Positions 2,007 through 31,059 of a stretch of 37,793 nucleotides of DNA are shown piece by piece; position 1 is the first letter of the stretch; every line of letters begins with the position of its first letter. Below the pieces are notes generated by a model. It was not told the origin of the DNA. It was given only the letters and a program-made list of their open reading frames with translations, and searched no databases. The DNA lies in the IMG/VR virus record IMGVR_UViG_3300028584_000490, positions 1 through 37,793 of that record; one strand, written 5' to 3'. The stretch comes from a virus. The position numbers and the translations under genes are program-made.

Positions 2007-2408
2007 ATGTATGCACTAGGAAAAGTTGAACTTGCTATATCGGAACACGCTGTTACTCTAGGTATTCTAGTTAATAGCGTTGGGAAGATTGAGGGCTTTA
2101 TGGAAGAGTCCGTTAAAGGGCAAATGAGACAAGAAGTGCTACTAGAAAAACTCGCAAACTTTGAAGCGAATACTAAGACTAGCTTTGATCGTGCTCATGC
2201 AAGAATAGACAAATTGGAAGCCGACATTACACTAAAAGAAAAATCAATGCGTGACCATATTGAAAGTATTGAGCCTATGGCAACTAATGGTGATCGGGTT
2301 CATAGTGGAATAGTATTTACTGCAAAAGCGTTGAGTGGTTTAGTTTTAACGATGTTGTTTGGGTTGGTTATTTGGGCTATTCAAGCATCAAATTATAAGG
2401 GGCAATAA
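2007..2408 (+). CDS. Coiled-coil protein with C-terminal transmembrane helix (133 aa); possible lysis-associated membrane protein
   Basis: The C-terminal segment GIVFTAKALSGLVLTMLFGLVIWAIQA is a predicted TM helix. The gene abuts the endolysin gene (TAATG overlap). Confidence 0.5.
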   Translation: MYALGKVELAISEHAVTLGILVNSVGKIEGFMEESVKGQMRQEVLLEKLANFEANTKTSFDRAHARIDKLEADITLKEKSMRDHIESIEPMATNGDRVHSGIVFTAKALSGLVLTMLFGLVIWAIQASNYKGQ

Positions 2409-2857
2409 TGCAAGGGTTTCACAAAAATTTCACGTTTGAAGAGTTGACAAACACAAACCATAAGAGCCTATTGGCTCAAAATATCAAAGAAGCTGTCAAG
2501 TATCAAAACGCTGGTAAACGACTGTCAAAGCTGTTGGGCAGTATCCGTGAAGCGTATGGGTTTCCTATCTCTATTACAAGCGGATTTCGCTGTCCTACTC
2601 TCAATGTTGCTATCGGTAGCAAAGCTAAGTCGTCGGCTCATTTACGGTTTGAGGCTGCTGATTGTATTCCCGTTGGCAAAGACTTCAAGCACTTCTTTAA
2701 ATGGCTCAATGAGCATAGCGAACAATTCCACGATCTACGCAAAGCTATTATCGAACATCACAAAGGGATTGTACATATCGAAGTGAAGATGGATGTGGAT
2801 GAGCCACAAGTGTTTTACACCACGAATGACAACGTACATTTTGAGGCGGTGGTGTGA
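2408..2857 (+). CDS. Endolysin, peptidase M15 (Zn D-Ala-D-Ala carboxypeptidase-like) family
   Basis: ITSGFRCPTLNVAIGSKAKSSAHLRFEAADCIP followed by GIVHIEV gives the His-Asp-His metal triad pattern of M15_3-type phage endolysins. The gene sits directly upstream of the holin and spanins. Confidence 0.8.
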   Translation: MQGFHKNFTFEELTNTNHKSLLAQNIKEAVKYQNAGKRLSKLLGSIREAYGFPISITSGFRCPTLNVAIGSKAKSSAHLRFEAADCIPVGKDFKHFFKWLNEHSEQFHDLRKAIIEHHKGIVHIEVKMDVDEPQVFYTTNDNVHFEAVV

Positions 2858-3057
2858 TGAAAAAGCTATCAGATAGTGTTCGTCCAATCCTAACATACCT
2901 CTTTGCTGTTTTATATATTGTAGTGAGTACATGGGGGGTATGGATTGGTAAGATTGAGTTTCAAATCTACTTTGCACAAGTTGGCACAATGGTGGGGATG
3001 ATGGTATCGTTTTGGTTTGGTGAAAAATCAGCTTTGAAAGACCCAAGGGGGGAATAG
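2854..3057 (+). CDS. Holin candidate (67 aa, two TM helices, charged C-terminus)
   Basis: Two predicted TM helices (PILTYLFAVLYIVVSTWGVWI and FAQVGTMVGMMVSFWF), then EKSALKDPRGE. It overlaps the endolysin stop (GTGATGA) and lies between the endolysin and the spanins. Confidence 0.7.
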   Translation: MMKKLSDSVRPILTYLFAVLYIVVSTWGVWIGKIEFQIYFAQVGTMVGMMVSFWFGEKSALKDPRGE

Positions 3058-3059
3058 AT

Positions 3060-3404
3060 ATGGAGCCTATAACATGGATTACGTTTTTAAAGAGATATTG
3101 GAAATTAGCTTTGGTCTTTGTTGTCTTATCGCTATTATCTATTTCACTGGTATGGATGATGATCTCAAACATTAATTTACAAGCTGATAATAGGGTGCTT
3201 AAATCTGAACTACTAAGTATTACTTCACAGTTGGAACAAAGCGCCAAAGAATATGAAACGGCTATGAATGAGTACACAAACAATATTCAAAAAATAAACA
3301 CGGTGTATTTGGATCGTGTGAAAACTATCTATAACATACAAGGAGATAACGATGCGAATGATTGTAATGACACTGCTTTTGTCCTCAATAGTATTGAGTA
3401 TTAG
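3060..3404 (+). CDS. i-spanin (Rz-like; N-terminal TM helix plus coiled coil)
   Basis: N-terminal TM helix WKLALVFVVLSLLSISLVWMMI, then a helical periplasmic region. The lipoprotein gene overlaps its 3' end in another frame. Confidence 0.7.
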   Translation: MEPITWITFLKRYWKLALVFVVLSLLSISLVWMMISNINLQADNRVLKSELLSITSQLEQSAKEYETAMNEYTNNIQKINTVYLDRVKTIYNIQGDNDANDCNDTAFVLNSIEY

Positions 3405-3585
3405 CGGATGTTTTGGCTGTGAGCCACAAGTGATCAAGTGCGTCACGCCACGCGTAGAAAAGCCCATCGTGAGCAATAAGCTCTATGAGGATAGTTTTCA
3501 GGGTGCGAAGCAGTGCGCTATGAATTACTATGCTATGAAGAAGTATGCGGAACTGTTGGAAGAAGCGAATGGGGTTTGTCGTTAA
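3352..3585 (+). CDS. o-spanin (Rz1-like outer-membrane lipoprotein), overlapping the i-spanin by 53 nt
   Basis: Signal peptide MRMIVMTLLLSSIVLSISG followed by Cys (lipobox I-S-G-C). It is a small protein and shows the classic overlapped spanin arrangement. Confidence 0.75.
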   Translation: MRMIVMTLLLSSIVLSISGCFGCEPQVIKCVTPRVEKPIVSNKLYEDSFQGAKQCAMNYYAMKKYAELLEEANGVCR

Positions 3586-6830: not shown

Positions 6831-9800
6831 ATGGCTGATGTATGGTCACGACTCGGTATCAAACCCTATGAAGCCGATCCTAAAAAAGTAAAACTCACTC
6901 TCGAAGATGCTCCCAAGGTGGAAGCGAAGCCACAAGCACAAGATACGAGCCGTAGCATTGGTCAAATTATCCTCGATACCGATGCACAGTTTGGCCAGGG
7001 TGCCGGATCACTCGTGCAAACATTCGGAGATTTGGGGCAGCTTGCTACGGGTAATAAAAACTCTCTTCAATCGTATGGTCAAGAGGTCAAAGACTTCTAT
7101 GGCAATCTTCTCTCCCCTCAATACAAACAAGAAGGTAAAGACGTATCGGCTGCGATCAAAGCAAAAGATGGAGAGATCGCGCAAGCGGTTGAGGCTATCA
7201 AGCAATATGCTACACATCCCTCGCAGCTATCGGGTGCAATTGTAGGATCAATCCCGGCTATGGCTGCGGGCGGTGTCCCTGGTAAAGTGCTGGGATTGGG
7301 TGCTGGTGCATTGGGAATTGGAGCTACGGGGGTTACGCGTGCCTCTATCGGTGGGGCTGCTGCGGGTGAATCAGTAATACAAGGTGGTCAAACGGGGGGC
7401 GAAGTGCTACGCGGTGATTTGAATCAAGCTGCAAATTCCGATTGGACTCCTAAGTATTCCCAAGAAGAGATACTAGATCGTGCGCGTACTGCTGCGCTGG
7501 GTTCTGCTGCTACTACTGCCCTCACCTATGCGATCCCTGGATCAACAACAATCGAAAAAGCATTGTTGGGTGTTGAGAATAAAGTGGGAAGCCGCGCTGT
7601 TAATACGGCTAAGGGTTTTGCGGGTGAAATGGGTCAAGAGGGAATCCAGGGTGGTACAGGGCAAATGTCTCAAAACTATGCCGAAGATAAACCACTCACG
7701 CAAGGTGTCGGAGAGGTTACTGCAACGGGCGCTCTCATCGGTGGGATCATGGGTGGTGGTATGGGGTTTGCCAATAGCACATCCAGCGCACCACAAGCAG
7801 CCCCTAAAAAACCTAGTGAGACGATCAACGTCGAAGAGGAAGTAAAGAGCGAAGCAAAGAAGCAAGCTTACACCTGGGCTACGCAGCGTGAGGGCGAAGT
7901 ACGTCAAGAAGCAGCGCAAGCAAAGGCGCACGTCAATGAAATGCTCAATAACGGGTTAGATCCAAAGAGTGTACGTGCTACGCTGGATAATCTCATCACG
8001 CCAAGTGCAGCCGATGTGAAACTAACTCAACTGCTCAATGAGGGTACGATCCTACCCTCTAACATGACGGGTATGCGTATCGTGCCTCTCATTGAAGATA
8101 CGATACAAGCCTCTATCGATGCGCCGGAACTTGCCCGTACCAATCAAGAACTAGAATCGGTACTCAAACAAGCGGGCATGAGTAAACGTCTCACGCAGAT
8201 CATTACTGCTGCGTATGCTGCTAAAGATCCTCAAATACTCAAAGATCACATCCAAGAGACACTTGATGGTAATACGCATGAGTTTGTCGATCATGCACCG
8301 ATCCAAGAAGCGATCATGCAGCAAGTAGCACAGCTTGACGAACAACACGCGATACAAATGGAAGCTATCAAGCAGCAAGAGGAAGAACAAAAAGCTATCG
8401 AAACGCTATCAAATGATAGCGAAAGTGTAGCGGTTGAGCCGAAACAAGAAGAGGTAATTTTTAAGCCCGCACAAGGGAAGCGTGCAGTGCGCGGTGAATT
8501 GTTTGATCTACCTTTTGGATACAAAGGTGTTATTGTTAAGAACCAGGCGGGGGATGCTGCTGAACTGTATGAGTATTCCACGGGATCACGTTTGTCGGGG
8601 TATAGTGCTGGTACAAGCTGGAAGCTAGATGAGTCTATTGCCGAGGCGCGTAATAAAATGGAACGTACCGGGGAAGAAAAGCTCGCGCAGCATTTTGAAG
8701 AGATTAAAAATGATAGAGGTATCACTAACACTGAAATCGTTTATGCTAAAGCTCCTACTATTACCAAAGAGAAAGAACTTGTAACAATAGAATCATTTAA
8801 TCGAGATGGAATAGCAATTGAAGTAAGCGGAACACCAATTAAGCTTTCAAATAATATCAATGCTATTATCACTAAACGTGATGATGGTTGGCATATCACT
8901 GAATCTGATGTAGGCGCACCACTAGGCGGAGGCAAAACAAGAAAAGAGGCTATTGATGCTGTTAATAATTCTATTCAGAAAATAGGAATTGAAAAATATT
9001 CAACACTTATTGAAAAGAAAAGAAAAGAATATGACATATTTCGTCTCCCTATTGAGGAAGTAAAGCAGTTCTTTAATGGGATGGATGCTAATGAAAAGAT
9101 AGAGTTTTCAAAGTCATGGGGCAGCAATACGCCTGAATGGTGGGCAGATAAAAATTGGGATGATTTAAGAAGCGATCAGCACGATGCACTTAAAAGCGTA
9201 TATTTAGGTCATAATAGAAATAAGAGTGATACAATACTAGATGATACTAAAACAATATCAAAAGATACTAAAACAACACTAAAAGGGGTGAAAGATGAAG
9301 AAGTACAACCAATTCGAGGCAATGATGGCGCTGGAAGCGAAGATACCGGATCAACAACGGTACGACCTGATGAAGCAAGTAACCCAAGGGGAAGCGATGC
9401 TGCCCGCGATGGAGGCATCGATGGAGAGACGAAAGGCGCAAGCAATGTTGTCGGAGCAGTACGATCACCTAAATCGGATATTGGGAACAGTGGCGGGGAT
9501 GATGCAGTATCCCAAGGAACTGAGCCAATGGAACGATACGCAGCCCCTAGCAGTGATGATACAAACGCTGCCGGAGTTGGAATCGACACAGTGGTATCAA
9601 GCGGTGGTGAACAAAATCTTAACCTAGAGGGCAAAGATCCTATCATACTTACAAGAGGTCAGCGTAGAGATATAAACTACCAGGCAAAAGCCATTCTCGA
9701 AAAAGGTGCGCCATACAGCGAAGCCGACAAAGAGATCCTACGCCAATACACCGGAGAGGGCGGGTTGGTATCCTCTAAAGAATCTCTCACACAACACTAC

Positions 9801-12800
9801 ACACCGTATCAAACGATCAAAGCCATTTATAACGCTCTCGATGTTGCGGGGTTTGCTCCCAAAACTGCATTAGAGCCAGCGGTGGGAAGCGGGAATTTTG
9901 TCGGGTTTCGTCCTGATCTCGCGTGGACGACTATCGACATCGATAAAACCAATCACGAGGTTGTCAATGCGCTGTACCCAAAAGCCAATAACTATCATAA
10001 CGGGTTTGAAGAGTTTAAGGGCAAAGGGTTTGATCTCATCATCTCCAATGTACCGTTTCTCGAAGAGCGCGGCGCGGGACTGCTCAAAGATCGTAAAGAC
10101 ATTAAGATGCTGCACGATTACTATTTTGCAGCGGCTATGGATAAGGTCAATGATAATGGGATCGTGGCGTTTGTCACGTCCAAGGGGACTATGGATAAGT
10201 CCGATGGTGCTATTCGTAAAGAGGTAGTGAGTCGGGGCGATATTATCGGAGCGTATCGTTTGCCTAGTGGTACGTTTTCTAAAAATGCGCATACCGATGT
10301 TGTCACCGATGTGATCTTCATCCAAAAACGTCCGGAGGGTGTGGAGCCTAGAGAAGAGCGTGCGCGTGACAATGAGGCGTTTGTGTCCTCTACCAAAACA
10401 GCTGATGATATATACATGAATACCTATTTTCAAAACCATACGTCCAATATCCTGGGCGATGTTAAAGCGGGGATCGATAAAGCCTATGGCCGTCCCGCGT
10501 ATGAGATCACGGGTACACCGGATTACAGCCGCATGAAGATCGACTATGCAGCGTATGGGAAAGAGAACCAAAAAGATGCAGCCAATGAGACACAGACTAT
10601 CCCTACAAACAGCAAAGAGTTTAAACAGTATGCCCAAGATAACGCGATTGAGTACACCAGCCATAAAGGTAGTGGGATCGTTATCGATGGTAGCAATGTT
10701 TTAGCGCAGCGTGAAGTGGAGTTTTCGGACATCGATCAAAAGGCGTACTATTATGAGCCATTAACGGACAAGGGGTTGTCCGATAAGATCCTAGCCCTGG
10801 ATAAGATCGTAGCAGCGGGTGAGGCTAATAACCTCGAAGAGGGGACAAAGCTCATCGATGCCTACAAAGCAGCGTTTAAAACCCACCCTAAGAAAGATAA
10901 AGCCCTGGGCAAAGCATTGCGCGAAGCGGGGGAAGATCAGAAGGTGTATGAGTATGGTAGTTTGTTTAATGATAAGTTTATACCTAGTGATATATTCCGT
11001 GAGCAGACACGCTATACCGGAAGCGGTAAAGCAGATATAAGCGAATCATCCCCACTCAAAGAACGATTATTTTACTCCGAGAACAACGAGGGTAAGCTCA
11101 ATATCAGAACCTCAAAGCTCCTGGATATGGATGAGTTCGGGGATATGCTCAAAGATGATAACTATGCCTATATTGGAGAGTTTAGCGTACAAAACAAGAT
11201 CCTCTATTACAGCGGCAATATCTATGATAAGATCGATGAGATTACTAAGATCCGGGATCAAAATTTAGGGGTTAAAAAATACGATGATGCAATCAGTGAG
11301 AAGCTCGATCTTCAACTCAAAGCACTCGAAGCCATACTGCCTGAACCCAAGAAGGTGGATGAGATCGAGTTTAAGGGAATAGAGAAGTGGATCAGCGATG
11401 CGGGGATCGAGATCCCGTTTAAGATGGTCAAGAAAACAGAGAAGCTACGCGACAATGGCGGGACTAAGACAACAGAGGAATGGCAAAGCGGATACGGTAA
11501 TATTTTTGATAATTACCTAAACGGCAAGCAGCTTATCTCAGCAAAACAAGATGAGTCAATGGCCTCGTTTAAAAACCGTTTGCGCGAAGCACAGCAAGAA
11601 GTGGCAACGGTACAAGACAAGTATCGTGCCTGGCTGTCAAGCAAGGGGCATACTGAGGCGTTTGAGAAAGCCTATAACAAACGCTTTAACGGATACGTGC
11701 AGCCGGACTATCTCGCAGCCTCGTACCTGATCCAGGACACACTCGATGCGCTGCCAAAAGAACTCACACTGCGCAGCAATCAGATCCAATGGATCATGCA
11801 AGCATATTATGAGGGTAAGGGGATCAATGCGCATGATGTTGGGGGCGGTAAGACGTTGGCTGGGATCGTGTTGGCAAAAGTCCTCAAAGATAAAGGGGCT
11901 GCTACAAAGCCGATCTTTGTTGTGCCGTCCAAGGTTATCAAGAATTGGGTTAAAGAGATCAAGCGTGCCGTACCGGATGCGAAGATCGTGGATTTGGGGA
12001 GTCTCTCAAAAGATAAGCGCGAATCGATGCTGCACGATTTGGCAAACACCAATGCCGATTATGTGCTGATTTCAAAAGAGGGTTTCCAGGCGCTCAAACT
12101 GCCGCTGCAAAAAGAGATCGATTATGCAACGCAGCTGTTACGAGAGAATTTGCAAAACGATAACCTAACCGGACGTGCTGAACAAGTAGCCAATGAGAAA
12201 GTAGAGCGCTATTTGGCGGTACTAAGAACCGATAATAAAAACAAATCGATCACGATTGACAAGCTGGGGATCGATGCCGTGTTCGCCGATGAAGCACGCA
12301 GCTATAAAAATATTGGGGTTAGCAGTGATCTTGTCGGTAATAAGCTGGGTAAAGCGTTTAGCATGAAAGAGAACGAGAAAACTAAGACCGTAAGTATCGA
12401 CAGTGCTATGGCGTATGATTTTCGTTTTAAAACCCGCTACATCGCAGAGCGTAACAATGGGCGTAATGTATTCTTACTCGATGCAACACCTACACCAAAC
12501 AAGCCTATCGAGATCTTCACGATGCTCAAACACCTGGACAATAATATATTCGATGAGTATGGGATCACTACGGATCGTGATTTTGCTAATATGTTTTTTG
12601 AGTTTGGGATTAAGCCTACTAAGACGGGGGGCATGGATAAAGGGTTGATCGCGCTTAAAAATGCGTTTGGACTCAAAGGGATCATGAATCGCTACATCAA
12701 TCGAATCAGCATGGCAGATTTTGCCAGCCAAAAGATCATCGATCTACCCGAAGAGAAAGTGATTAACCACTACCTCGATCAAACCGATGAGGGCGATATA

Positions 12801-14111
12801 GTGTTTACGGATATTGCTAAACGTATGCAAGAAGCAAAAGCCGATAAAGAGAAACGTAAAGAGATACCAGGGATATTTAGCAACGGGATCACGGCAAGTG
12901 TCGATCCAAGATTGTATCAGCGTATGGGGATCACAGACATACTTGATCCTACACCGGATAATCATAAGATCGCCAAGGTGATCGATCTCGTTCTATCCAA
13001 ACGCGGCATCGATGCGAAGTCGGGGCAGATCATATTCCTAGACAGTGCCGGGCATACGGCAAGTGATACGAATGTAAAGGTAGATAAGACAACGGGAGTC
13101 GAGACTGTTTATGCTGCTACCCTGGAACAAAACCTACACCGTGATATGAAAGATAAGCTTATCGCTAGTGGCAAATATAAAGCTAATGAGATTGCTATCC
13201 TAAGTGGCCAGGAGATCACTGATCCAAGAACGGGTAAAGAGACGGGAGCTACGGGCGATAAAGCGCAGCAACTCAAGCAAGATATTGTTGATGCGTATGA
13301 TGCCGGGCAAGTTAAGGTAATCATCGGAACAACTAAGAGTGCGGGTGAGGGGATGAATATCCAAAAGTTTACGACGGATATTTACCACATCGATCTACCC
13401 TGGACGATTGCCGAAGTAATCCAGCGCAATGGGCGTGGGGTACGGTTTGGTAATCAAAACGCAAGTGTAAACCTACACTACTTTTTCCAGGCGGGGACGT
13501 TTGACTCTCTCATGTATAAAACAGTCATGAATAAAAAAGGATGGAATGAGGCGCTATGGGATACCAAAGTAGAGGATCGTATGGAAGTCGTGGACGAGGG
13601 TGGATCGATGCCAAGTCCAGCGGAGATCATGTTAGCTATGGAAAAAGATCCTATTAAGAGGAGACAATTAGAACTAGAGATCGAATACCAGCGCCTCAGT
13701 GATGAATATAACAATGTTACCGATGAAGTTAAAGCCATCGAGCGCAGAATATCAACCATAACAACAGAGCAGCGCGACGAGGGCAATAAGCAACGTGATC
13801 TCGAAGCACGTATGAAAGATCCAACGCCTACGCTAGAGCTGCGTGAGCTGCAAGAGAAGATGCACAAAGAGCCTAAGAAGTACAAAGCAAAGTTTGAGGA
13901 AGTCCAGGCGCGCGTTAAGAAGAGCCAAGAGGGTATGCACGCGCAACGTGTAGCTAAGATGGAGAATCTCAAGAAAGAAGAAGTGCGACGATACGAAGCA
14001 CTCAAAACAGCGAGAGAGAATCATACTAAAGTCGCGGGCGAACTAAGAGATTTTGAGGATAAGTACATGGATAACCGGGGTAATTTTATAGCTGAAGTGG
14101 AGTGTGCGTAA
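6831..14111 (+). CDS. Giant polyvalent protein (2426 aa): N-terminal glycine-zipper region, tandem small modules, acidic G/S/D disordered linker, N6-adenine DNA methyltransferase domain, SNF2/DEAD-type helicase domain, C-terminal coiled coil (P1 DarB-like architecture)
   Basis: Uninterrupted 7.3 kb ORF. MTase motif I EPAVGSGNFVG (nt ~9873) and motif IV DLIISNVPF (nt ~10044). Helicase motif I DVGGGKTLAG (nt ~11835), motif II FADEARSYKN (nt ~12288), motif III LLDATPTPN, motif V GTTKSAGEGMNIQ, and motif VI QRNGRGVRFGN (nt ~13422). Confidence 0.85.
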   Translation: MADVWSRLGIKPYEADPKKVKLTLEDAPKVEAKPQAQDTSRSIGQIILDTDAQFGQGAGSLVQTFGDLGQLATGNKNSLQSYGQEVKDFYGNLLSPQYKQEGKDVSAAIKAKDGEIAQAVEAIKQYATHPSQLSGAIVGSIPAMAAGGVPGKVLGLGAGALGIGATGVTRASIGGAAAGESVIQGGQTGGEVLRGDLNQAANSDWTPKYSQEEILDRARTAALGSAATTALTYAIPGSTTIEKALLGVENKVGSRAVNTAKGFAGEMGQEGIQGGTGQMSQNYAEDKPLTQGVGEVTATGALIGGIMGGGMGFANSTSSAPQAAPKKPSETINVEEEVKSEAKKQAYTWATQREGEVRQEAAQAKAHVNEMLNNGLDPKSVRATLDNLITPSAADVKLTQLLNEGTILPSNMTGMRIVPLIEDTIQASIDAPELARTNQELESVLKQAGMSKRLTQIITAAYAAKDPQILKDHIQETLDGNTHEFVDHAPIQEAIMQQVAQLDEQHAIQMEAIKQQEEEQKAIETLSNDSESVAVEPKQEEVIFKPAQGKRAVRGELFDLPFGYKGVIVKNQAGDAAELYEYSTGSRLSGYSAGTSWKLDESIAEARNKMERTGEEKLAQHFEEIKNDRGITNTEIVYAKAPTITKEKELVTIESFNRDGIAIEVSGTPIKLSNNINAIITKRDDGWHITESDVGAPLGGGKTRKEAIDAVNNSIQKIGIEKYSTLIEKKRKEYDIFRLPIEEVKQFFNGMDANEKIEFSKSWGSNTPEWWADKNWDDLRSDQHDALKSVYLGHNRNKSDTILDDTKTISKDTKTTLKGVKDEEVQPIRGNDGAGSEDTGSTTVRPDEASNPRGSDAARDGGIDGETKGASNVVGAVRSPKSDIGNSGGDDAVSQGTEPMERYAAPSSDDTNAAGVGIDTVVSSGGEQNLNLEGKDPIILTRGQRRDINYQAKAILEKGAPYSEADKEILRQYTGEGGLVSSKESLTQHYTPYQTIKAIYNALDVAGFAPKTALEPAVGSGNFVGFRPDLAWTTIDIDKTNHEVVNALYPKANNYHNGFEEFKGKGFDLIISNVPFLEERGAGLLKDRKDIKMLHDYYFAAAMDKVNDNGIVAFVTSKGTMDKSDGAIRKEVVSRGDIIGAYRLPSGTFSKNAHTDVVTDVIFIQKRPEGVEPREERARDNEAFVSSTKTADDIYMNTYFQNHTSNILGDVKAGIDKAYGRPAYEITGTPDYSRMKIDYAAYGKENQKDAANETQTIPTNSKEFKQYAQDNAIEYTSHKGSGIVIDGSNVLAQREVEFSDIDQKAYYYEPLTDKGLSDKILALDKIVAAGEANNLEEGTKLIDAYKAAFKTHPKKDKALGKALREAGEDQKVYEYGSLFNDKFIPSDIFREQTRYTGSGKADISESSPLKERLFYSENNEGKLNIRTSKLLDMDEFGDMLKDDNYAYIGEFSVQNKILYYSGNIYDKIDEITKIRDQNLGVKKYDDAISEKLDLQLKALEAILPEPKKVDEIEFKGIEKWISDAGIEIPFKMVKKTEKLRDNGGTKTTEEWQSGYGNIFDNYLNGKQLISAKQDESMASFKNRLREAQQEVATVQDKYRAWLSSKGHTEAFEKAYNKRFNGYVQPDYLAASYLIQDTLDALPKELTLRSNQIQWIMQAYYEGKGINAHDVGGGKTLAGIVLAKVLKDKGAATKPIFVVPSKVIKNWVKEIKRAVPDAKIVDLGSLSKDKRESMLHDLANTNADYVLISKEGFQALKLPLQKEIDYATQLLRENLQNDNLTGRAEQVANEKVERYLAVLRTDNKNKSITIDKLGIDAVFADEARSYKNIGVSSDLVGNKLGKAFSMKENEKTKTVSIDSAMAYDFRFKTRYIAERNNGRNVFLLDATPTPNKPIEIFTMLKHLDNNIFDEYGITTDRDFANMFFEFGIKPTKTGGMDKGLIALKNAFGLKGIMNRYINRISMADFASQKIIDLPEEKVINHYLDQTDEGDIVFTDIAKRMQEAKADKEKRKEIPGIFSNGITASVDPRLYQRMGITDILDPTPDNHKIAKVIDLVLSKRGIDAKSGQIIFLDSAGHTASDTNVKVDKTTGVETVYAATLEQNLHRDMKDKLIASGKYKANEIAILSGQEITDPRTGKETGATGDKAQQLKQDIVDAYDAGQVKVIIGTTKSAGEGMNIQKFTTDIYHIDLPWTIAEVIQRNGRGVRFGNQNASVNLHYFFQAGTFDSLMYKTVMNKKGWNEALWDTKVEDRMEVVDEGGSMPSPAEIMLAMEKDPIKRRQLELEIEYQRLSDEYNNVTDEVKAIERRISTITTEQRDEGNKQRDLEARMKDPTPTLELRELQEKMHKEPKKYKAKFEEVQARVKKSQEGMHAQRVAKMENLKKEEVRRYEALKTARENHTKVAGELRDFEDKYMDNRGNFIAEVECA

Positions 14112-16291
14112 TGGGTTGTGATTTAAAGAAGAGAAAAGCGCAGTATGATAGCCTCGTAGATAAGATGTTTGGGAAGCTTGAAGATTGGAATAGTATCGAT
14201 AAGACGTTTGACAAGTTAGAAGGTGGGCTGATCGCTGCGGATAAGTACGTCGTGAACAAAGTCAATGCCTCACAAGAGAAAGTAAAAGTAAAAAATCTGT
14301 TTGCAATCCATGAGACAGAGCGTGTTTTCAGTGAATGGATGCGGGAGTTGCGTATCCAAAAGCAGATGATCGCGGATCGTGCGCAGCAGACACAAGAGTT
14401 TTTGCAAGGGTTGAGTGAAGAACATAGCGAGCAGCTGGTGCGTGCACTCAATGGTGACATCGATGCGATCACACTGCCACAAGAACTGCGCGGAGTCTAT
14501 GACACGTTTCGTGAAGCGATCAATAGCAATGCTAGAGAACTCGTAGAGCTGGGTGTACTCAAAGAAGAGAACATGATAAGCGATTACCTCAAACGCTACT
14601 ACAAAGATTTCCTCGATACGAGCGGCAGCGGTAAGGCGTATTTTGACAAGCGGTTTAAAGCACGTAAAGACTTGACGCATGATGAACGCCTGGCAAAAGG
14701 GATGATCGAAGATGCAAGCTATGTGATCCCTAAGACAATGGCAGATCAAAAGCTCCAAGCACTCAAAGCAAAAGTGTTGCAAAGCATCGCCGATAAGTTC
14801 GGGAAAGACAAAGAAGAAGAGGGATATGTCCAGGTTCCGGATACTACTGTGGGCGGTGGGGTTAAAATGTACGGAGCATTATCGGGTAAATATGTACCCG
14901 AAGAGATCCTATCCTCTCTCAAGGGGGCATCGTTCGCACGCAAGCAGCTAACTGCTTGGGAGGGGTGGGTTGGTTTCATCGATCATATTAAGGTTAATAT
15001 GACGGTCAAGAATCCATTTACCCACGTTTATAATGTAGGATCAAATGTTCTCATGTCGTTTTTACATGGAGACGTGCAAGCCCTGGGTCGTGTTTTGGAT
15101 ATGGCGCATCGGGATAAGGTAAAGTTTCGTGCGTTGGTCGAAGAGGCAAACAAATACGGGCTTAATACGCTTCTGGGAGATATGGAAGATCAACTCGTCC
15201 TGGATGAGAATGGAAGCCCTAGCCTCATCAAGACGATTGCTAAAAATCTCTACATGACACAAGACTCTAAGATGGGTAAAGGGATGCGCAAGGCGTATGA
15301 GTGGGAGGATAAGATCTTCAAGCTTGCAGCGTTTGAGGGCAATATGAAAAAAATGCGTGAAGAGCTGGGGCGAGAACTAACCGAAGATGAGAAGCGCACC
15401 GCGTTTCGTGAAGCGAATGAGGCGTATGTTGATTATGACTCTCCGCTGCCGGATGGTGTTAAGCTATTGGATAAATCCGGGTTGTTTCCGTTTCTCCACT
15501 ATACTTGGAAATCATCGCCCGTAGTTGCCAAAGCTGCACTCAAACATCCGGTACGGTTTGCGATCATGCAAGCGGCACTCATCGGTTTGGGAGCCTCGGC
15601 ATGGTTTGGGGACGATGATGATGATCTAAAGCCGGGTTGGGCTGCTAGTCAATGGAATCTATTGGGATCTAAAGAGTGGGTTAATCTCCATAATGGGCTG
15701 TTTCTCAATGCGGGTCGTCTCGTCCCTGGTGCGAAGATCGGTGGGCTTGATTTTAGTGGTGGGTTTATCGGTGGTATGATTAACATCGGTGGAGGTAAGA
15801 CTACGCTTGGGTATGATTTTGTGAACAAGTACGATACTGTTGGGGAGAGTGTCGTTAAACGTGTAGCGACGTTTGCGGAGAGCTATGCACCTCCTATATC
15901 ACCTATCGGGCGTTATGGGCAGCGCCTAGTAAAGAACGCAATGGGTGAGGGAAAGAAGAACAGCAGCACCGGGGAGATCATGGATACGAAAGAGATCCTA
16001 TCACAGCCGCTAGGGTTACGCAAGTTTGATGCGAAGCATGAAGCGCAGCTCAAAGCCAATGCGATCAAGAATAAATACGTGCGGATGGTAGAAAAGGGCG
16101 AGGATAAAACGGATGCCGCAAAGGTGTATCGTGATGAGCGTCGTGAGCTGATGGATAGTGTAGCGAAACAAAAAGTAGTAGGGTTGAAGCTCGATGATAC
16201 TCCGCCAAAAGCGGATAAGGAAGTGGAAGGGGAAGCAGCTAAGAAGAAAAAGAGTTTGTCGCTGCTAAGTCCGGTGAGGTTGAAGTTATGA
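14111..16291 (+). CDS. Hypothetical large late protein (726 aa) translationally coupled to the polyvalent gene
   Basis: ATG 14111 overlaps the polyvalent stop (TAATG); the track's earlier ATG 14102 is inside the upstream gene. Contains GDDDDDLKPGW and Gly-rich GGLDFSGGFIGGMINIGGGKT. No family recognised. Confidence 0.6.
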   Translation: MGCDLKKRKAQYDSLVDKMFGKLEDWNSIDKTFDKLEGGLIAADKYVVNKVNASQEKVKVKNLFAIHETERVFSEWMRELRIQKQMIADRAQQTQEFLQGLSEEHSEQLVRALNGDIDAITLPQELRGVYDTFREAINSNARELVELGVLKEENMISDYLKRYYKDFLDTSGSGKAYFDKRFKARKDLTHDERLAKGMIEDASYVIPKTMADQKLQALKAKVLQSIADKFGKDKEEEGYVQVPDTTVGGGVKMYGALSGKYVPEEILSSLKGASFARKQLTAWEGWVGFIDHIKVNMTVKNPFTHVYNVGSNVLMSFLHGDVQALGRVLDMAHRDKVKFRALVEEANKYGLNTLLGDMEDQLVLDENGSPSLIKTIAKNLYMTQDSKMGKGMRKAYEWEDKIFKLAAFEGNMKKMREELGRELTEDEKRTAFREANEAYVDYDSPLPDGVKLLDKSGLFPFLHYTWKSSPVVAKAALKHPVRFAIMQAALIGLGASAWFGDDDDDLKPGWAASQWNLLGSKEWVNLHNGLFLNAGRLVPGAKIGGLDFSGGFIGGMINIGGGKTTLGYDFVNKYDTVGESVVKRVATFAESYAPPISPIGRYGQRLVKNAMGEGKKNSSTGEIMDTKEILSQPLGLRKFDAKHEAQLKANAIKNKYVRMVEKGEDKTDAAKVYRDERRELMDSVAKQKVVGLKLDDTPPKADKEVEGEAAKKKKSLSLLSPVRLKL

Positions 16292-16564
16292 TGGGATAAC
16301 CATCATAGTGATAATAAGCATAGAAAAAACAACTGCACCAAAGAAACCATCGCTTTTATCACGAAATACGGTAGAATACAAAAAACCAGCGCACGCGATG
16401 TATACTAGAGAATATTGTGGTGCGATAAATGCTATGATAAAAGGGATGATCCACGCATGAACGATGCCTTTAACTATTTGCCCGTAATCGTACTCTTGTA
16501 CGTCACTTTCAAAATTTGGCGCGATCAGCGATGGCGCAGTGCTGTTAGTAAGTGGTTTTGACAT
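16286..16564 (-). CDS. Small integral membrane protein (92 aa), last gene of the leftward tiny-protein operon
   Basis: Hydrophobic helices (HAWIIPFIIAFIAP, LVYIACAGFLYSTVF, FFGAVVFSMLIITMMVI). SD AAGGA upstream. Its stop overlaps the convergent 726-aa gene by 6 nt. Confidence 0.6.
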   Translation of the reverse strand: MSKPLTNSTAPSLIAPNFESDVQEYDYGQIVKGIVHAWIIPFIIAFIAPQYSLVYIACAGFLYSTVFRDKSDGFFGAVVFSMLIITMMVIPS

Positions 16565-16565
16565 T

Positions 16566-16787
16566 TTATAGTCCTTTAAATTTATTAGATTCTTCTAAAT
16601 GACTAATTTTAGATTCTAATATTTTATTTCTAAGTTCTAAATGACTAATAGTTTCTTCATAGTAATCACAAATTGCATCAACAAAAGTATCATTTATTGT
16701 TGCTTTTACACTATGAAATCCATCTTTTAATTCTTCAGAAACACATTTTACAAAATACGTTTTACCTTTAAATAATTCTCTACTCAT
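16566..16787 (-). CDS. Hypothetical small protein (73 aa)
   Basis: I place the start at Met12 of the track ORF (MSRELFKGK...), because ATG 16787 forms an ATGA overlap with the upstream 43-aa ORF and has SD AAGGGA. Confidence 0.55.
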   Translation of the reverse strand: MSRELFKGKTYFVKCVSEELKDGFHSVKATINDTFVDAICDYYEETISHLELRNKILESKISHLEESNKFKGL

Positions 16788-16915
16788 AATGTTCCCTTTT
16801 TTATTTGATATGTAAACCATTCATTGAAGCCATGATCTGATCCATTTTCTTTTATCCATTTTGTTCTGTATGTATTATACATTTCCATTACTTCTTTAAT
16901 TAAATTAGAATTCAT
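16784..16915 (-). CDS. Hypothetical micro-protein (43 aa, MNSNLIKEVMEMYNTYRTKWIKENGSDHGFNEWFTYQIKKGTL); not in ORF track
   Basis: Hand translation. It has ATGA overlaps at both ends (16912-16915 and 16784-16787) and SD GGAGGA 8-9 nt upstream. It fills the otherwise empty gap between two listed ORFs. Confidence 0.5.
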   Translation of the reverse strand: MNSNLIKEVMEMYNTYRTKWIKENGSDHGFNEWFTYQIKKGTL

Positions 16916-17115
16916 GCTGATATTCCTCCAAAGTCAAATAAAAACCCACTCTCTAGCATAGCGTTAAGTTTTGCAAGGCGAAATATATAGCGCTCTATTA
17001 CATCATTTAGTTGAAGATCTTTTGAATATGACAGCTCTTTATCTAATAGGCGCTGTGTTTCATTGATCGACTGCTGCACTCTTCTTTTGTATTCCGGTGT
17101 TAGTTCTTTTTTCAT
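16912..17115 (-). CDS. Hypothetical helical small protein (67 aa)
   Basis: Strong SD AAGGAG 8 nt upstream of ATG 17115. ATGA overlap with the upstream 37-aa ORF. Confidence 0.6.
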   Translation of the reverse strand: MKKELTPEYKRRVQQSINETQRLLDKELSYSKDLQLNDVIERYIFRLAKLNAMLESGFLFDFGGISA

Positions 17116-17225
17116 TTTACTGCTCCTTGGTGTTGTGCTGCTAATGCAGTTCCGGTGTTTGTTGCCCAGCTTGCTGCTGCGTGGATCGATGCGTAGATCG
17201 CTATGATCATGATGATTGTTTTCAT
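17112..17225 (-). CDS. 37-aa hydrophobic or signal-peptide-like micro-protein (MKTIIMIIAIYASIHAAASWATNTGTALAAQHQGAVK); not in ORF track
   Basis: Hand translation. SD AAGGA lies upstream of ATG 17225, and the stop overlaps the next start (ATGA). The N-terminal 20 residues look like a Sec signal or TM helix. Confidence 0.45.
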   Translation of the reverse strand: MKTIIMIIAIYASIHAAASWATNTGTALAAQHQGAVK

Positions 17226-17404
17226 GGTGTTTATCCTTTTTGTATATATTTAACTGATGACAGTATTATACAACTAACATTAAAACAAGCTGAAACAATA
17301 CTAAATTAACATCATTTTAGTGTCAAATTACAACTTTATAGTATTAATCAACACTTTTTTAGGGTTTTATGGTACTATTTTAGTATTCTTTTAGGAGGTT
17401 TGAT

Positions 17405-18043
17405 ATGGTTATTACAGTAGCTCATCAAAAAGGTGGTGTGGGGAAAAGTACGATCGCTAGTAATTTGGCGGTCGAGTATTTCAAAACGTATGGGGATCGT
17501 CTCACGGTTGTGGATTTGGATACGCAGCGATCATTGACGTATTTTAATAATATACGAAAATACAATGGAATCCAAGAGCTGCCGATCGTCCAGGTGAAGA
17601 GCGCGGATGAGCTTACGGCAGTGATTAAAGCAAACAAGGGATTGATCCTCATCGATGCTGGAGGGTTTGATAGTGATGTGAATCGTGTGGCGATGCTGCA
17701 CGCGGATCGGATCATCACTCCGGTGAGCGATAGCAGCTTTGAGCTGGGTGGGTTGATGATGTTTCGCGGGATCTTGCGAGAGCTTCGTGCTGCTCGTCCT
17801 GATCTTGTCGCTACTGTGCTGCTCAATCGGGTGCATCAGTTCGCGGGGAAGAGTTTGGAGGAGATCTTCGACTTTGCTCGCAGCAATGAGGAGTTTGGTA
17901 TTTTTGAGACGATCCTACGAGATCGAGGGGAGTACAAACGTGCGACGGAAAATGGAAAGAGCGTTGTAGAGCTTGTGAGAGACGGCAAAGCAGCGCAAGA
18001 GATCACTAATTTGATGGAGGAGATGGATAATGAACAAGTTTAA
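17405..18043 (+). CDS. parA: ParA-family partition ATPase (small, type Ib-like, 212 aa)
   Basis: Deviant Walker A HQKGGVGKSTIASNLA. AGGAGG at 17393-17398. It is followed by an overlapping small RHH gene. Confidence 0.85.
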   Translation: MVITVAHQKGGVGKSTIASNLAVEYFKTYGDRLTVVDLDTQRSLTYFNNIRKYNGIQELPIVQVKSADELTAVIKANKGLILIDAGGFDSDVNRVAMLHADRIITPVSDSSFELGGLMMFRGILRELRAARPDLVATVLLNRVHQFAGKSLEEIFDFARSNEEFGIFETILRDRGEYKRATENGKSVVELVRDGKAAQEITNLMEEMDNEQV

Positions 18044-18248
18044 TGAAGCGGCGCTGGATGCAGCGGTCAATGGTGCGGCGATGAAAGTTGCTGTTGAGGC
18101 GGTAGAGATCGAGGTGGATAAACAATCTCCGGTGTACGACATACCAAAGCAATGGAAGAAGCTGATCAAGAAACATCGCCATGCTACGTTTAGTGCGTAT
18201 GCTCGTGCAGCGATTGAAGAGAAGATGCAGCGGGATGGGTTGATATGA
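18030..18248 (+). CDS. Ribbon-helix-helix centromere-binding protein candidate (ParG-like, 72 aa)
   Basis: Overlaps the parA 3' end. The C-terminal segment SPVYDIPKQWKKLIKKHRHATFSAYARAAIEEKMQRDG fits a beta-alpha-alpha RHH layout after a flexible N-tail. Confidence 0.6.
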   Translation: MNKFNEAALDAAVNGAAMKVAVEAVEIEVDKQSPVYDIPKQWKKLIKKHRHATFSAYARAAIEEKMQRDGLI

Positions 18249-19266: not shown

Positions 19267-19473
19267 TTAGTAGATATAGTAAAACTGTGATGAACTTCCG
19301 ATCCATCCAATGCTTTTGAAAAAGTAGAATGATCCAAAAAATGAAATAGCCATAGAAATTGCCAGGATATATTCTGATAATTTTGAGCATTTTTTTTCGT
19401 GGCACTCTTGTCCAACATAATAGAGCGATCCTGGTACAGCCATTATGATTATAATTGATAAGATTCCAAGCAT
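19267..19473 (-). CDS. Small two-TM membrane protein (68 aa), distal gene of the repressor operon
   Basis: Predicted TM helices LGILSIIIIMAVPGSLYYV and ILAISMAISFFGSFYFF. The start lies 1 nt after the upstream stop. Confidence 0.55.
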   Translation of the reverse strand: MLGILSIIIIMAVPGSLYYVGQECHEKKCSKLSEYILAISMAISFFGSFYFFKSIGWIGSSSQFYYIY

Positions 19474-19474
19474 C

Positions 19475-19714
19475 TTATTTCTTTGGGGTATTTCGTTTAT
19501 CTTCTGATGGGAGGACTTGTTTTGCTGATCCGTCAGGGTTGTAGATTACCTTTATATCATCGGTGAATTTCATTCGTACCATTGTCCCTAAAAACTCCTG
19601 AAACACTTCACCCGTATCATCATTGATAATGGTAAAGCGTTCAGAATCTTTTACATAGACCCATTTCGCGTTGGCGCTTACTATGATCAGTGCTGCTAAT
19701 ATAATTTTTTTCAT
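19475..19714 (-). CDS. Small exported protein (79 aa, Sec signal peptide)
   Basis: MKKIILAALIIVSANA then KW (AxA cleavage-like site). ATGA overlap with the repressor stop. Confidence 0.6.
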   Translation of the reverse strand: MKKIILAALIIVSANAKWVYVKDSERFTIINDDTGEVFQEFLGTMVRMKFTDDIKVIYNPDGSAKQVLPSEDKRNTPKK

Positions 19715-20361
19715 CCGTGATACTCCATTGTGTAGATTACTTGCCCTAATATTTCTATCTCATCTTTTTTAATATTAAATTGTGGGTAGTCGGGGTTATC
19801 ACTTTTTACGATCAACCCATTATGGGCTACAAATAGCCGTTTAACAAAGATCTCATCGTTCATGCGGATAATAAAAATTTTGCCGTTTTTAATTTCGTGT
19901 TGGAGCTTATCAACGAAGATCATATCTCCATCGTTTAGGGTTTGGTTCATACTATCACCACTTACTTTTATCGCTTCAATAAGCTTGGAAGAGGTGCGTG
20001 GCAATAGGTTGTGATCCACAAAGATCATATCATACTCACAATGATCCCCATTAAGACATCCAAATCCAGCTGATGCAGATATATCCTGGAAAAGTTTTAC
20101 TGCAATTTTTCCTACTGGCGCATCATCTCCAAGATTTAGGCGAGGGGAGATCTTCATCTCACCCAACCCATAGAAGATATATTCTAAATTTGCATCTGTA
20201 TCACGCAAATTATTGACTATTGCTTCATGAGGGATAGCATTTCTTCTTTTTCTCTCGTAAATATTTGCTGCTGTTAATCCAATAATTTGTGCTATTTCTT
20301 TGTCATCTGTAACTTTAAAAAAAGTTTTTAAGCGCAATAGCACATTATTTATGTCATTCAA
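19711..20361 (-). CDS. CI/LexA-like phage repressor (HTH + S24 peptidase autocleavage domain)
   Basis: N-terminal HTH (KEIAQIIGLTAANIYERKRRNAIP). S24 catalytic Ser in VSGDSMNQTL and Lys in EIFVKRL. It is divergent from an XRE gene. Confidence 0.85.
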   Translation of the reverse strand: MNDINNVLLRLKTFFKVTDDKEIAQIIGLTAANIYERKRRNAIPHEAIVNNLRDTDANLEYIFYGLGEMKISPRLNLGDDAPVGKIAVKLFQDISASAGFGCLNGDHCEYDMIFVDHNLLPRTSSKLIEAIKVSGDSMNQTLNDGDMIFVDKLQHEIKNGKIFIIRMNDEIFVKRLFVAHNGLIVKSDNPDYPQFNIKKDEIEILGQVIYTMEYHG

Positions 20362-20380: not shown

Positions 20381-20397
20381 TGTTGTAATATACAACA
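20381..20397. promoter_or_regulatory. Candidate operator: 17-bp palindrome TGTTGTA-ATA-TACAACA in the repressor/cro divergent region
   Basis: Perfect 7-bp inverted arms read in the 109-bp intergenic region between the divergent starts 20361 and 20471. Confidence 0.5.
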
Positions 20398-20470: not shown

Positions 20471-20689
20471 GTGGTAAGTCAAAATATTAAGATTTTTCGT
20501 GTTACATTAAAGCTCGATCAAGATGAATTTGCAAAGCGTTTAGGCGTGACTCAGCCGACAATATCAAGCTGGGAAAACGGAAAAACAAAGCCCGATGTGG
20601 ATCATATTTTGACTATTGTTGATATGGGTGCGAATATTTATTTTATTTTGCATGGTATTGGATCACCACTTATGAGGATGAGCGCATGA
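20471..20689 (+). CDS. Cro-like XRE-family HTH regulator (72 aa)
   Basis: LDQDEFAKRLGVTQPTISSWENGKTKP is a canonical XRE HTH. The start is GTG, and the gene is divergent from the repressor. Confidence 0.75.
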   Translation: MVSQNIKIFRVTLKLDQDEFAKRLGVTQPTISSWENGKTKPDVDHILTIVDMGANIYFILHGIGSPLMRMSA

Positions 20690-21350: not shown

Positions 21351-21576
21351 AAGAAAAATTTAAGAAAAGAACTTAAAAAAAGCAAAGAGATTTTAAACTT
21401 CCTATTGGGAAAGGCTCTTTGCTCTTGCGATGAAGTTTGCAAAGAACTAACGCTACACGTAGTGGTTGGTCGTTTGGAGATTTCACAAACCAAAGGAGTT
21501 GTTCATGACAACCAAAGAGAAAAAGAAACTACGGGCAAAACGAAAAGCTCGAACGCAAATGAAAGGGGAATAGATT

Positions 21577-30465: not shown

Positions 30466-31059
30466 ATGGTGGTAGGGTATGTACGGGTATCAACGGTAAA
30501 ACAAGATGCTGAAAATCAAATGGGTGAGATTTCAAGGTGGTGTGCGTATAGTGGCATGAGTGTAGAAAAAATCGTCAGTGAGACAATCAGCAGCCGAAAA
30601 AAAGAGCGTGAGATCTTTGAGTTGGTGGAGAGTATGGGGGAGGGTGATGTCCTCATCGTCACTGAACTCTCACGGATTGCCCGTAGTGTCAAAGAGCTAT
30701 CGGCGATCACAGAAACGTTGGTGGAGAAAAAAGTTCGGATCGTTTTTCTCAAAGAGGGGCTGGACATCCATGATAATAATCCAGCGGGTAAAATGATGTT
30801 ATCCATATTGGGAAGTATCGCAGAGTTTGAGCGTGATATGATCTCTATTCGTACCAAAGAGGCGATGCAAACCAAGCGTGATAATGGTATCGTCGTGGGA
30901 CGGATCAAGGGATCAAAAAATAAAGAACACAAATTGCTAGGCAAAGAGAAACAGATCCAAGGGTATCTCGATAAAGGGATGAGCAAAACGGATATAATCA
31001 AGGTGCTTGGGGTGAGCCGTGGGACTTTTTATAGTTTTATAGGCGAGATGGGATTATAA
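30466..31059 (+). CDS. Small serine recombinase (resolvase/invertase family, 197 aa)
   Basis: N-terminal VGYVRVSTVKQDAENQ (catalytic Ser), SRIARS, and a C-terminal HTH (SKTDIIKVLGVSRGTFYSF). SD AAGGGG upstream. Confidence 0.85.
   Translation: MVVGYVRVSTVKQDAENQMGEISRWCAYSGMSVEKIVSETISSRKKEREIFELVESMGEGDVLIVTELSRIARSVKELSAITETLVEKKVRIVFLKEGLDIHDNNPAGKMMLSILGSIAEFERDMISIRTKEAMQTKRDNGIVVGRIKGSKNKEHKLLGKEKQIQGYLDKGMSKTDIIKVLGVSRGTFYSFIGEMGL

Follow-up and report, generated by a model that had tools for sequence, protein, structure and literature searches.

The closest described counterparts of the locus reported here are phage morons and cargo hot-spots, such as the lambdoid pL and nin regions, HK97-type morons and the P2/P4 cargo hot-spots: small dispensable genes at a fixed site between conserved syntenic genes, differing in content between near-identical genomes, deviant in base composition and with recombination joints at gene boundaries. 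The locus, which has all of these features, is a leftward unit of five tiny genes (orfA to orfE) on the minus strand at positions 16286-17225 of a 37,793-nt stretch of viral DNA (IMG/VR record IMGVR_UViG_3300028584_000490); this whole stretch is called the window, and all coordinates refer to it unless a relative is named. It differs from the classical moron, which has its own promoter and terminator, in that its genes are promoterless, translationally chained behind one upstream promoter region and not followed by a terminator. Its neighbours are a virion gene on one side and a partition locus on the other, not immunity or tail genes, and its cargo resembles no known defence or conversion genes. 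Integron cassette arrays are a second parallel, being strings of promoterless, individually exchangeable small open reading frames (ORFs) behind one end promoter; the unit, however, has no integron integrase or attC sites, its genes overlap or abut without spacers, no matching inverted repeats were found at the gene junctions, and the one recombinase of the element, a serine invertase, lies at a distance of 13 kb. Exchange apparently proceeds through homologous gene-end sequences. A third parallel is with phage-plasmids, whose exchanged genes are mostly of unknown function (review PMC11652158). Like the variable repertoires of Pfeifer et al. 2021, as summarised in PMC11652158, the element carries ParA-type maintenance in addition to phage modules and has its variable genes next to a plasmid-type module; unlike the repertoires described there, its cargo is micro-proteins and not resistance or defence systems. 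The Campylobacterota podovirus-like group to which it belongs is absent from the phage records searched. We consider it likely that the region is a hypervariable, moron-type accessory-gene slot of a temperate Campylobacterota phage-plasmid and not a five-part machine.

The five-ORF coding chain is real. On the minus strand, orfA (17225-17112; 37 amino acids, aa), orfB (17115-16912; 67 aa), orfC (16915-16784; 43 aa) and orfD (16787-16566; 73 aa) are linked by ATGA stop/start overlaps at 17112-17115, 16912-16915 and 16784-16787, and orfE (16564-16286; 92 aa) follows after a single nucleotide at 16565. An earlier reading of the window from its letters alone (the sequence-only reading) had described exactly these ORFs, overlaps and gap, and all were found in place. 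It had also assigned each ORF its own Shine-Dalgarno (SD) sequence: reading the sequence again, we find SD-like motifs 5-9 nt 5' of all five starts (aaGGAtaaacacc for orfA, AAGGAGcagtaaa for orfB, GGAGGaatatcagc for orfC and AAGGActataaa for orfE), that of orfD (aaGGGAacatt) being weak. An alternative 84-aa version of orfD, starting at 16820, has no SD, and the IMG call is the 73-aa version. Two of the ORFs were indeed missing from the ORF track used in that reading, but this reflects just a length cut-off, and all five are annotated as genes in the JGI/IMG contig corresponding to the window. When ATG-to-stop ORFs of at least 30 aa were counted, they covered 99.9% of the minus strand of 16286-17225 compared to 21.7% +/- 14% in 2000 dinucleotide shuffles (shuffle maximum 73%), none of which matched the observed value; coverage of the plus strand is 11%. 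The codon-position periodicity of orfD is strong (GC content 0.36, 0.27 and 0.04 at positions 1, 2 and 3).

In order to see how the unit is built in related elements, we compared the interval between the gene of a 729-aa virion protein (14102-16291, convergent with the unit) and parA, hereafter the slot, which is flanked by these two genes in the window and in relatives L001-L004, L006 and L027. Leftward small genes occupy the slot in all relatives; their number and family vary, and the eleven independent loci show ten different arrangements. Relatives differ by the presence or absence of entire genes, which bears out the accessory status proposed by the sequence-only reading. Its further proposal of a single undescribed five-gene system failed the synteny check, since the five-gene string occurs in 0 of 11 related slots. 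In transcription order, the window's orfA-orfB-orfC-orfD-orfE contrasts with orfA, a 50-aa gene and orfE in L007/L008; with a 67-aa gene, an orfB homologue (orfB'), a 62-aa gene and orfE in L009/L010; and with a partial 35-aa gene, a 67-aa gene of the orfB' cluster and orfE in a 952-bp contig. Slots with an orfE-like gene are further found in L001 (68 aa, then orfE-like), L027 (68-aa-like, 76 aa, orfE-like), L006 (53 aa, 68 aa, orfE-like, 77 aa) and L003 (123 aa, orfE-like, 205 aa). The slot of L002 holds one 53/68-aa gene, a homologue of the L006 53-aa gene, that of L004 one uncalled 67-aa ORF, and that of L005, an integrase-type element with no parA, genes of 152, 42, 70 and 77 aa. The 53-aa gene is itself another mobile micro-gene of the slot: it encodes a basic protein (..LARLAKRKGY.VEI..), is the first slot gene in both L002 (2412-2573) and L006 (10839-11000), and is found on five contigs.

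The mosaic structure is resolved most finely in the nearest relatives, L007 and L008, which derive from two different samples. Both are ~98% identical to the window from 18248 down to 17106, a stretch comprising parA, the control region, all of orfA (identical to the window copy) and the first 10 nt of orfB, and they are 95% identical over orfE. Between these conserved ends, with blastn breakpoints at 17106 and 16564, the 541 nt of orfB-orfC-orfD (16565-17105, minus strand) are replaced by 144 nt with one unrelated 50-aa ORF, which starts at the same ATGAAAAAAG and ends 1 base before orfE. As the first five orfE codons differ in this comparison (MLEVF vs MSKPL), the right-hand exchange joint lies inside the orfE start. 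That near-identical genomes swap orfB-orfC-orfD for one unrelated gene also counters the idea of a single system. An apparent N-terminal resemblance between orfD and the 50-aa ORF (LFKGKTYFV vs IYRGKTWEV) was discarded, because BLASTP returned no alignment at E<=5. A second type of joint is visible in L009/L010, whose identity to the window is 86% across orfE and the virion gene. At the protein level, orfB' of these relatives shares 64% identity with orfB; at the DNA level 27/29 of the first and 49/51 of the last nucleotides are the same, and the centre is saturated (synonymous rate, dS, 1.5; nonsynonymous rate, dN, 0.33). In a contig other than these, orfB' is followed directly by orfE. As the SD and start of a following gene lie within such conserved ends, unrelated genes become translationally coupled.

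Base composition follows the same boundaries. The slot has a GC content of 0.336 compared to 0.431 for the window, dipping to 0.25-0.34 across the unit between flanks of 0.46-0.50, and in each of the six relatives checked the slot lies 0.06-0.12 under the GC of its locus. The description of the operon as markedly AT-rich thus holds for the whole and not evenly for its parts: GC is 0.465 in orfA, above the window value, 0.363 in orfB, 0.250 in orfC, 0.225 in orfD and 0.398 in orfE. At third codon positions the values are 0.42, 0.29, 0.20, 0.04 and 0.37 from orfA to orfE, and 0.43-0.53 in core phage genes. Since their third-position GC is so low, orfC and orfD seem to have come in recently from a far more AT-rich donor, and the codon composition shows what we take to be at least three separate origins for the five genes.

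The observations above bear directly on a reading in which the five genes, or a core subset such as orfA with orfE or orfC with orfD, form one accessory system, for example an abortive infection or exclusion device with orfE as membrane effector and orfB to orfD as soluble sensors or modulators. The tight stop/start coupling and the single promoter region fit such a system, as does the retention of both orfA and orfE in the closest relatives despite the swapped middle; the orfE-like genes of a second clade, described below, are moreover always accompanied by a tiny transmembrane (TM) micro-protein, so that orfE may need a small membrane partner. Arrangements are, however, common only to near-identical genomes, orfA is missing from the other orfE-bearing slots of the window's clade (clade I), the orfB and orfC families stand alone elsewhere, the codon composition points to separate origins, and PADLOC, Pfam and PHROG searches gave no match. 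We therefore regard a single system as unlikely.

The individual genes were then characterised one by one. The sequence-only reading had described the products as a signal-peptide-like peptide, helical micro-proteins and a three-TM membrane protein, and this agrees with the hydrophobic N-terminus of orfA, the helical hairpin of orfB and the three TM-length helices of orfE. Equally, none resembles a known family: orfA to orfE have no match above noise in Pfam, PHROGs, NCBIfam and PADLOC and none in PDB, and matches to PriC, YlqD, DUF5595 and Cas1_II were below their thresholds and were taken as noise. Relatives of orfA to orfD were sought in an exhaustive HMMER search of 1.84e9 representatives. 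For orfA, whose hydrophobic N-terminus is followed by the segment IHAAASWAT, a single distant relative came up, P0203 (42 aa, 62-66% identity, E 6e-4). It shares the hydrophobic N-terminus and the segment behind it, which has a conserved AAAS/W motif and resembles a signal-peptidase site. The orfA product is predicted to be either a signal-peptide-like or a single-TM micro-protein. These features could suit a secreted pre-peptide for arbitrium-like communication between phages or between phage and host, in line with the small-peptide signalling system that had been suggested for the operon. Against this, there is no receptor-type gene, the neighbours being 43-92 aa (all below 100 aa) and without TPR or helix-turn-helix (HTH) matches, and orfA is restricted to the nearest relatives and the one distant match; in a Gram-negative host, Sec export would in any case reach the periplasm only. 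A signalling role thus appears highly improbable.

The orfB product is modelled as a helical hairpin (AlphaFold2, AF2; predicted local distance difference test score, pLDDT, 87; helices 7-29 and 37-56). Approximately 30 relatives of 52-87 aa share the consensus LTPEYKRR..QA..ETQ.LLDKEL.YS.DLQ......HIAKL..ML, and a dN/dS of ~0.22 indicates purifying selection. The protein itself is unmatched in Pfam, PHROG and PDB, Foldseek returned only non-specific helical-hairpin matches for the model, and a PADLOC-DB match to Cas1_II, of just 16.8 bits over a helical stretch, was rejected as spurious. The orfC family, with approximately 25 relatives of 42-63 aa, is made up of phage proteins of roughly 45 aa with the consensus KELM..YNEYR.KWIE..G.D.GF.EWFT.QV. 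We located orfB-like genes in two and orfC-like genes in ten unrelated IMG/VR contigs, usually amid runs of other tiny genes; these contigs belong to unrelated phages and have a GC of 0.40-0.61, and none of the ten orfC-like contigs has an orfB- or orfE-like neighbour. Profile scans of all loci with hidden Markov models (HMMs) revealed no co-occurrence of the orfB, orfC and orfE families outside the window except orfB with orfE in L009/L010. Neither Pfam nor PHROGs gave a consistent match for members of the orfB and orfC families, and profile searches of the PDB returned nothing. Judged from these comparisons, orfB and orfC are members of two separate, widely scattered and previously undescribed phage micro-protein families. 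As a side observation, an orfC-type 40-aa domain is fused inside a 1218-aa ORF (L016, 1484-5140) of a 175-kb viral contig, and the 137-aa protein P0190 has an orfC-type domain as its N-terminus and a GNAT-like C-terminus.

In the same search orfD matched only itself. Its fold is probably a beta-rich N-terminal half with a C-terminal helix. A 27-nt direct repeat at 16581-16649, with 42-nt spacing, encodes a 14-aa repeat (ISHLE...ISHLE; the copies at the protein level being ..ISHLELRNKILE and SKISHLEESNKF..), which suggests an internal duplication within what is predicted to be a C-terminal amphipathic helix. The content of the slot thus comprises three undescribed micro-protein families (orfB-, orfC- and orfE-like) and one orphan, orfD, and this content is what appears to be new; the pattern as such is common in temperate phages and is no new category of system.

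The gene with the widest conservation at this position, and in this clade usually the last one of the unit, is orfE. Copies that are 37-97% identical lie at the same position in L001, L003, L006, L007-L010 and L027, and it is absent from L002 and L004, both of which have parA. A profile search yielded a family of 25 clusters of 84-110 aa, all metagenomic and 0/25 with a Pfam domain. Kyte-Doolittle windows show three TM-length hydrophobic helices, and the AF2 model, built on 26 sequences, places them at 27-47, 49-65 and 72-89 with pLDDT ~85 there and a disordered N-terminus. The best-conserved stretch, LYSTVFR.KS.GFFG, runs from the end of helix 2 to the start of helix 3, and dN/dS values of 0.32-0.41 against five relatives indicate purifying selection. 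Foldseek and BFVD searches with the fold and PDB searches with sequence profiles gave no match. The stop of orfE overlaps that of the convergent 729-aa virion gene by 6 nt (TTATGA, 16286-16291), and the identical overlap is found in L001, L009 and two further contigs. A second architecture occurs in clade II (L023-L026 and L028-L033, including metagenome-assembled genomes, MAGs, of Sulfuricurvum), where an orfE-like gene lies on the par strand and, if parA-parB are present, comes immediately behind them. All clade II loci encode after it, sometimes with one or two genes between, a single-TM micro-protein of 40-49 aa whose conserved tail, KRR.G.NP.DAKY, is basic (L023 2379-2507; L024 3278-3406; L025 3281-3421; L026 3442-3582; also L028-L033), and the two form a conserved pair. 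As orfE lies in a slot beside parA in clade I and behind parA-parB in clade II, it is linked to partition genes in two architectures. In the window's clade it has no constant partner; orfA was considered for this role and rejected, as no orfA counterpart or comparable ORF exists in the clade I slots L001, L003, L006 and L027.

Adjacency to partition genes in both architectures also raises post-segregational killing, the addiction module suggested by the sequence-only reading, in which a small neighbour would counteract orfE or orfA as the membrane toxin. Plasmid stabilisation functions often cluster, and orfA and orfE are both small and hydrophobic. There is, however, no co-inherited partner, the gene upstream of orfE encoding 50, 62, 68, 76 or 123 aa or being orfD, depending on the lineage. 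No toxin or antitoxin family matched in Pfam, NCBIfam, PADLOC or PHROGs, orfE is missing from some parA-bearing relatives (L002 and L004), and Rfam and tRNA scans were negative, giving no antisense RNA family as a type I system requires. Without a gene that has a co-varying partner, an addiction module is disfavoured, and we judge it very unlikely.

What orfE might do is better addressed by comparison with exclusion proteins such as T4 Imm, those of the lactococcal Sie2009 type and HK97 gp15. Like these, orfE encodes a small (92 aa), polytopic membrane protein, is accessory, lies outside the lytic modules and is restricted to one phage group; unlike them, it resembles no described family of Pfam, PHROG, PDB or BFVD in sequence or fold, and it is linked to par genes and not to the repressor, whose operon has candidates of its own. 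A role as holin was rejected, as a complete and self-contained lysis cassette (endolysin, two-TM holin-like ORF and spanin-like pair) lies elsewhere, at 2007-3585. The protein would most likely act at the inner membrane. By analogy, superinfection exclusion, one of the functions suggested for the whole operon, is retained for orfE only, as our preferred but tentative guess. A broader proposal, to which we give still less credence, is that orfE is an undescribed par-linked module, in one clade with the 40-49-aa TM partner, that would serve plasmid-state maintenance or exclusion, and that the orfB and orfC families would be dispersed anti-defence or host-takeover inhibitors gathered by the slot.

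We turned to the region between orfA and parA for indications of how the unit might be expressed. As the sequence-only reading had noted, the unit and parA share a divergent control region, 179 nt long at 17226-17404. On its far side lies a partition module on the plus strand (17405-18248), consisting of parA (17405-18043; 212 aa; Pfam AAA_31/MipZ/CbiA/ParA and phrog_164) and an overlapping gene for a 72-aa partner that had no match in family scans and is presumably a centromere-binding protein. The control region contains three of the eight matches to ATACTAWA in the window (17298, 17337 and 17379) in addition to degenerate copies, iterated TAGTAT motifs and a palindrome, TACTATTTTAGTA, at 17372-17384. 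In relatives, the iterons found here are particular to each lineage, for instance at least 10 copies of AACATTA/AACATCA in L002 and L006. Because the motifs differ by lineage, as expected if they co-vary with the partition proteins, the iterons are probably partition-site or operator repeats of the 72-aa ParA partner. Two candidate minus-strand promoters lie among them. P1 (17298-17326) combines TTGACA, a 17-nt spacer and TAGTAT and matches the sigma-70 consensus at 10/12 positions; P2 (17265-17270) is a perfect TATAAT -10 element, 39 nt upstream of the orfA ATG, with no good -35. Campylobacterota promoters usually have a weak -35 or none. No terminator-like site was found between the unit and the convergent virion gene, and late virion transcription would consequently be antisense to the unit.

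An alternative reading takes the unit as an early lytic left operon like lambda pL, repressed by CI in lysogens and switched on upon infection or induction to supply small host-takeover or anti-defence proteins. Tiny overlapping mosaic gene arrays are typical of temperate-phage early operons. A CI/LexA-type repressor gene (19711-20361, minus strand) and a 72-aa Cro-like HTH ORF (20471-20689) are separated by a near-perfect palindrome, GTTGTA-ATA-TACAAC, at 20382-20396, which is a probable CI operator; a copy with three mismatches lies at 21498-21512. Two GTTGTAWW half-sites of this palindrome abut the -35 and -10 candidates of the leftward promoters, and together with the palindrome's own two, four of the seven GTTGTAWW matches in the window fall in the two control regions. 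Each of the two sites, however, matches the 15-mer palindrome at only 11/15 positions, the unit is 2.3 kb from cI with the par genes between, and the cI-region palindromes of L001, L002 and L006 have no further copy between slot and parA. Having failed this covariation test, control of the leftward promoter by CI is retained as a minor rival, and an early lytic operon seems to us rather unlikely. As the promoter candidates lie within par-type iterons, a CI operator is unsupported and late transcription would be antisense, we favour expression of the unit in the maintained, non-lytic (plasmid-prophage) state, which makes the proposal of the sequence-only reading on this point plausible.

We hypothesise that the accessory slot would work as follows. 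A promoter inside partition-site-like repeats 5' of parA would drive a single leftward transcript that always stops at the gene of the convergent virion protein and whose last gene, in this clade, is usually orfE. Promoterless small genes between the promoter and orfE would be gained, lost and swapped via recombination at gene boundaries, the 3' end of the preceding gene providing an incoming gene with its SD and with a start that overlaps or abuts, so that it becomes co-translated. The slot of the window holds orfA, also present in the nearest relatives, the recurrent hairpin gene orfB, the apparently recently arrived AT-rich orfC-orfD, and orfE. Transcription would take place during plasmid-prophage maintenance, and the products would probably work individually, with the host or competing phages as targets. 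Several points weigh against this account. The comparison covers 11 related slots out of more than 300 homologous elements. The tight coupling, and the retention of orfA and orfE together in the closest relatives, could reflect interplay of some neighbours; orfC and orfD are possible partners, seen in no other combination since orfD is unique. The number of sites in the promoter scan does not exceed chance (8 vs 6.1 expected), GTTGTA half-sites of the cI-cro palindrome abut both leftward promoter candidates, and the repressor operon's own secreted and membrane proteins are exclusion candidates as good as orfE.

These proteins are encoded downstream in the CI operon, on the minus strand, as a 79-aa signal-peptide protein (MKKIILAALIIVSANA; 19475-19714) and a 68-aa TM protein (19267-19473), and these are classic sites for lysogeny-expressed exclusion proteins. 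The element itself is a complete genome, circular or terminally redundant, of ~37.56 kb, because its first and last 237 nt are identical (1-237 and 37557-37793); the tail fibre ORF at 46-759 probably runs on across the circular junction. PHROG and Pfam matches identify genes for a tail fibre, primase, large terminase, serine recombinase, portal and major capsid protein. No tyrosine integrase is found among the genes of the window, and a phage-plasmid lifestyle is plausible. The element also encodes a 2426-aa DarB-like methyltransferase/helicase polyvalent virion protein, which with the 729-aa protein that follows it spans 6831-16291, ~25% of the genome and very large for 37.6 kb. Homologues of both proteins in relatives carry PBECR (PF18809/10/12) or LPD1 domains, and the two are probably injected anti-restriction or virion proteins. 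At 30466-31814, a 197-aa serine recombinase/invertase and a 251-aa replication-initiator-like protein are encoded between the genes of the large terminase and the portal; this placement is unusual, and the pair could represent one more inserted module.

The 729-aa protein has 305 homologues, mostly on 30-39-kb contigs, whose named sources are Sulfurospirillaceae, Sulfurimonas, Helicobacteraceae, Arcobacteraceae and Campylobacter. Because of these sources, and of the orfE relatives in Sulfuricurvum MAGs, the host is identified, on homology, as a member of the Campylobacterota. Among phage records, megablast of the region against INPHARED gave no match, and only distant Helicobacter pullorum prophages surfaced. 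Likewise, exact-protein lookups of orfE and ParA returned no contig on record, IMG/VR single-protein scans with the 729-aa protein, orfE and an orfA alignment gave no match, and neither did tblastn of concatenated orfA to orfE against phages and plasmids at E<=1. The phage SNW-1 of Sulfurimonas indica, of similar size, was considered and set aside as apparently another phage type; its paper is silent on this locus.

If the slot reading is correct, the locus would be a clear natural case of gene-by-gene cassette turnover in the little-studied phage-plasmids of sulfur-oxidising Campylobacterota. It would also warn against inferring a functional unit from tight translational coupling. The orfB-, orfC- and orfE-like families, with their alignments and contexts, could then be screened for anti-defence, host-takeover and exclusion activity.

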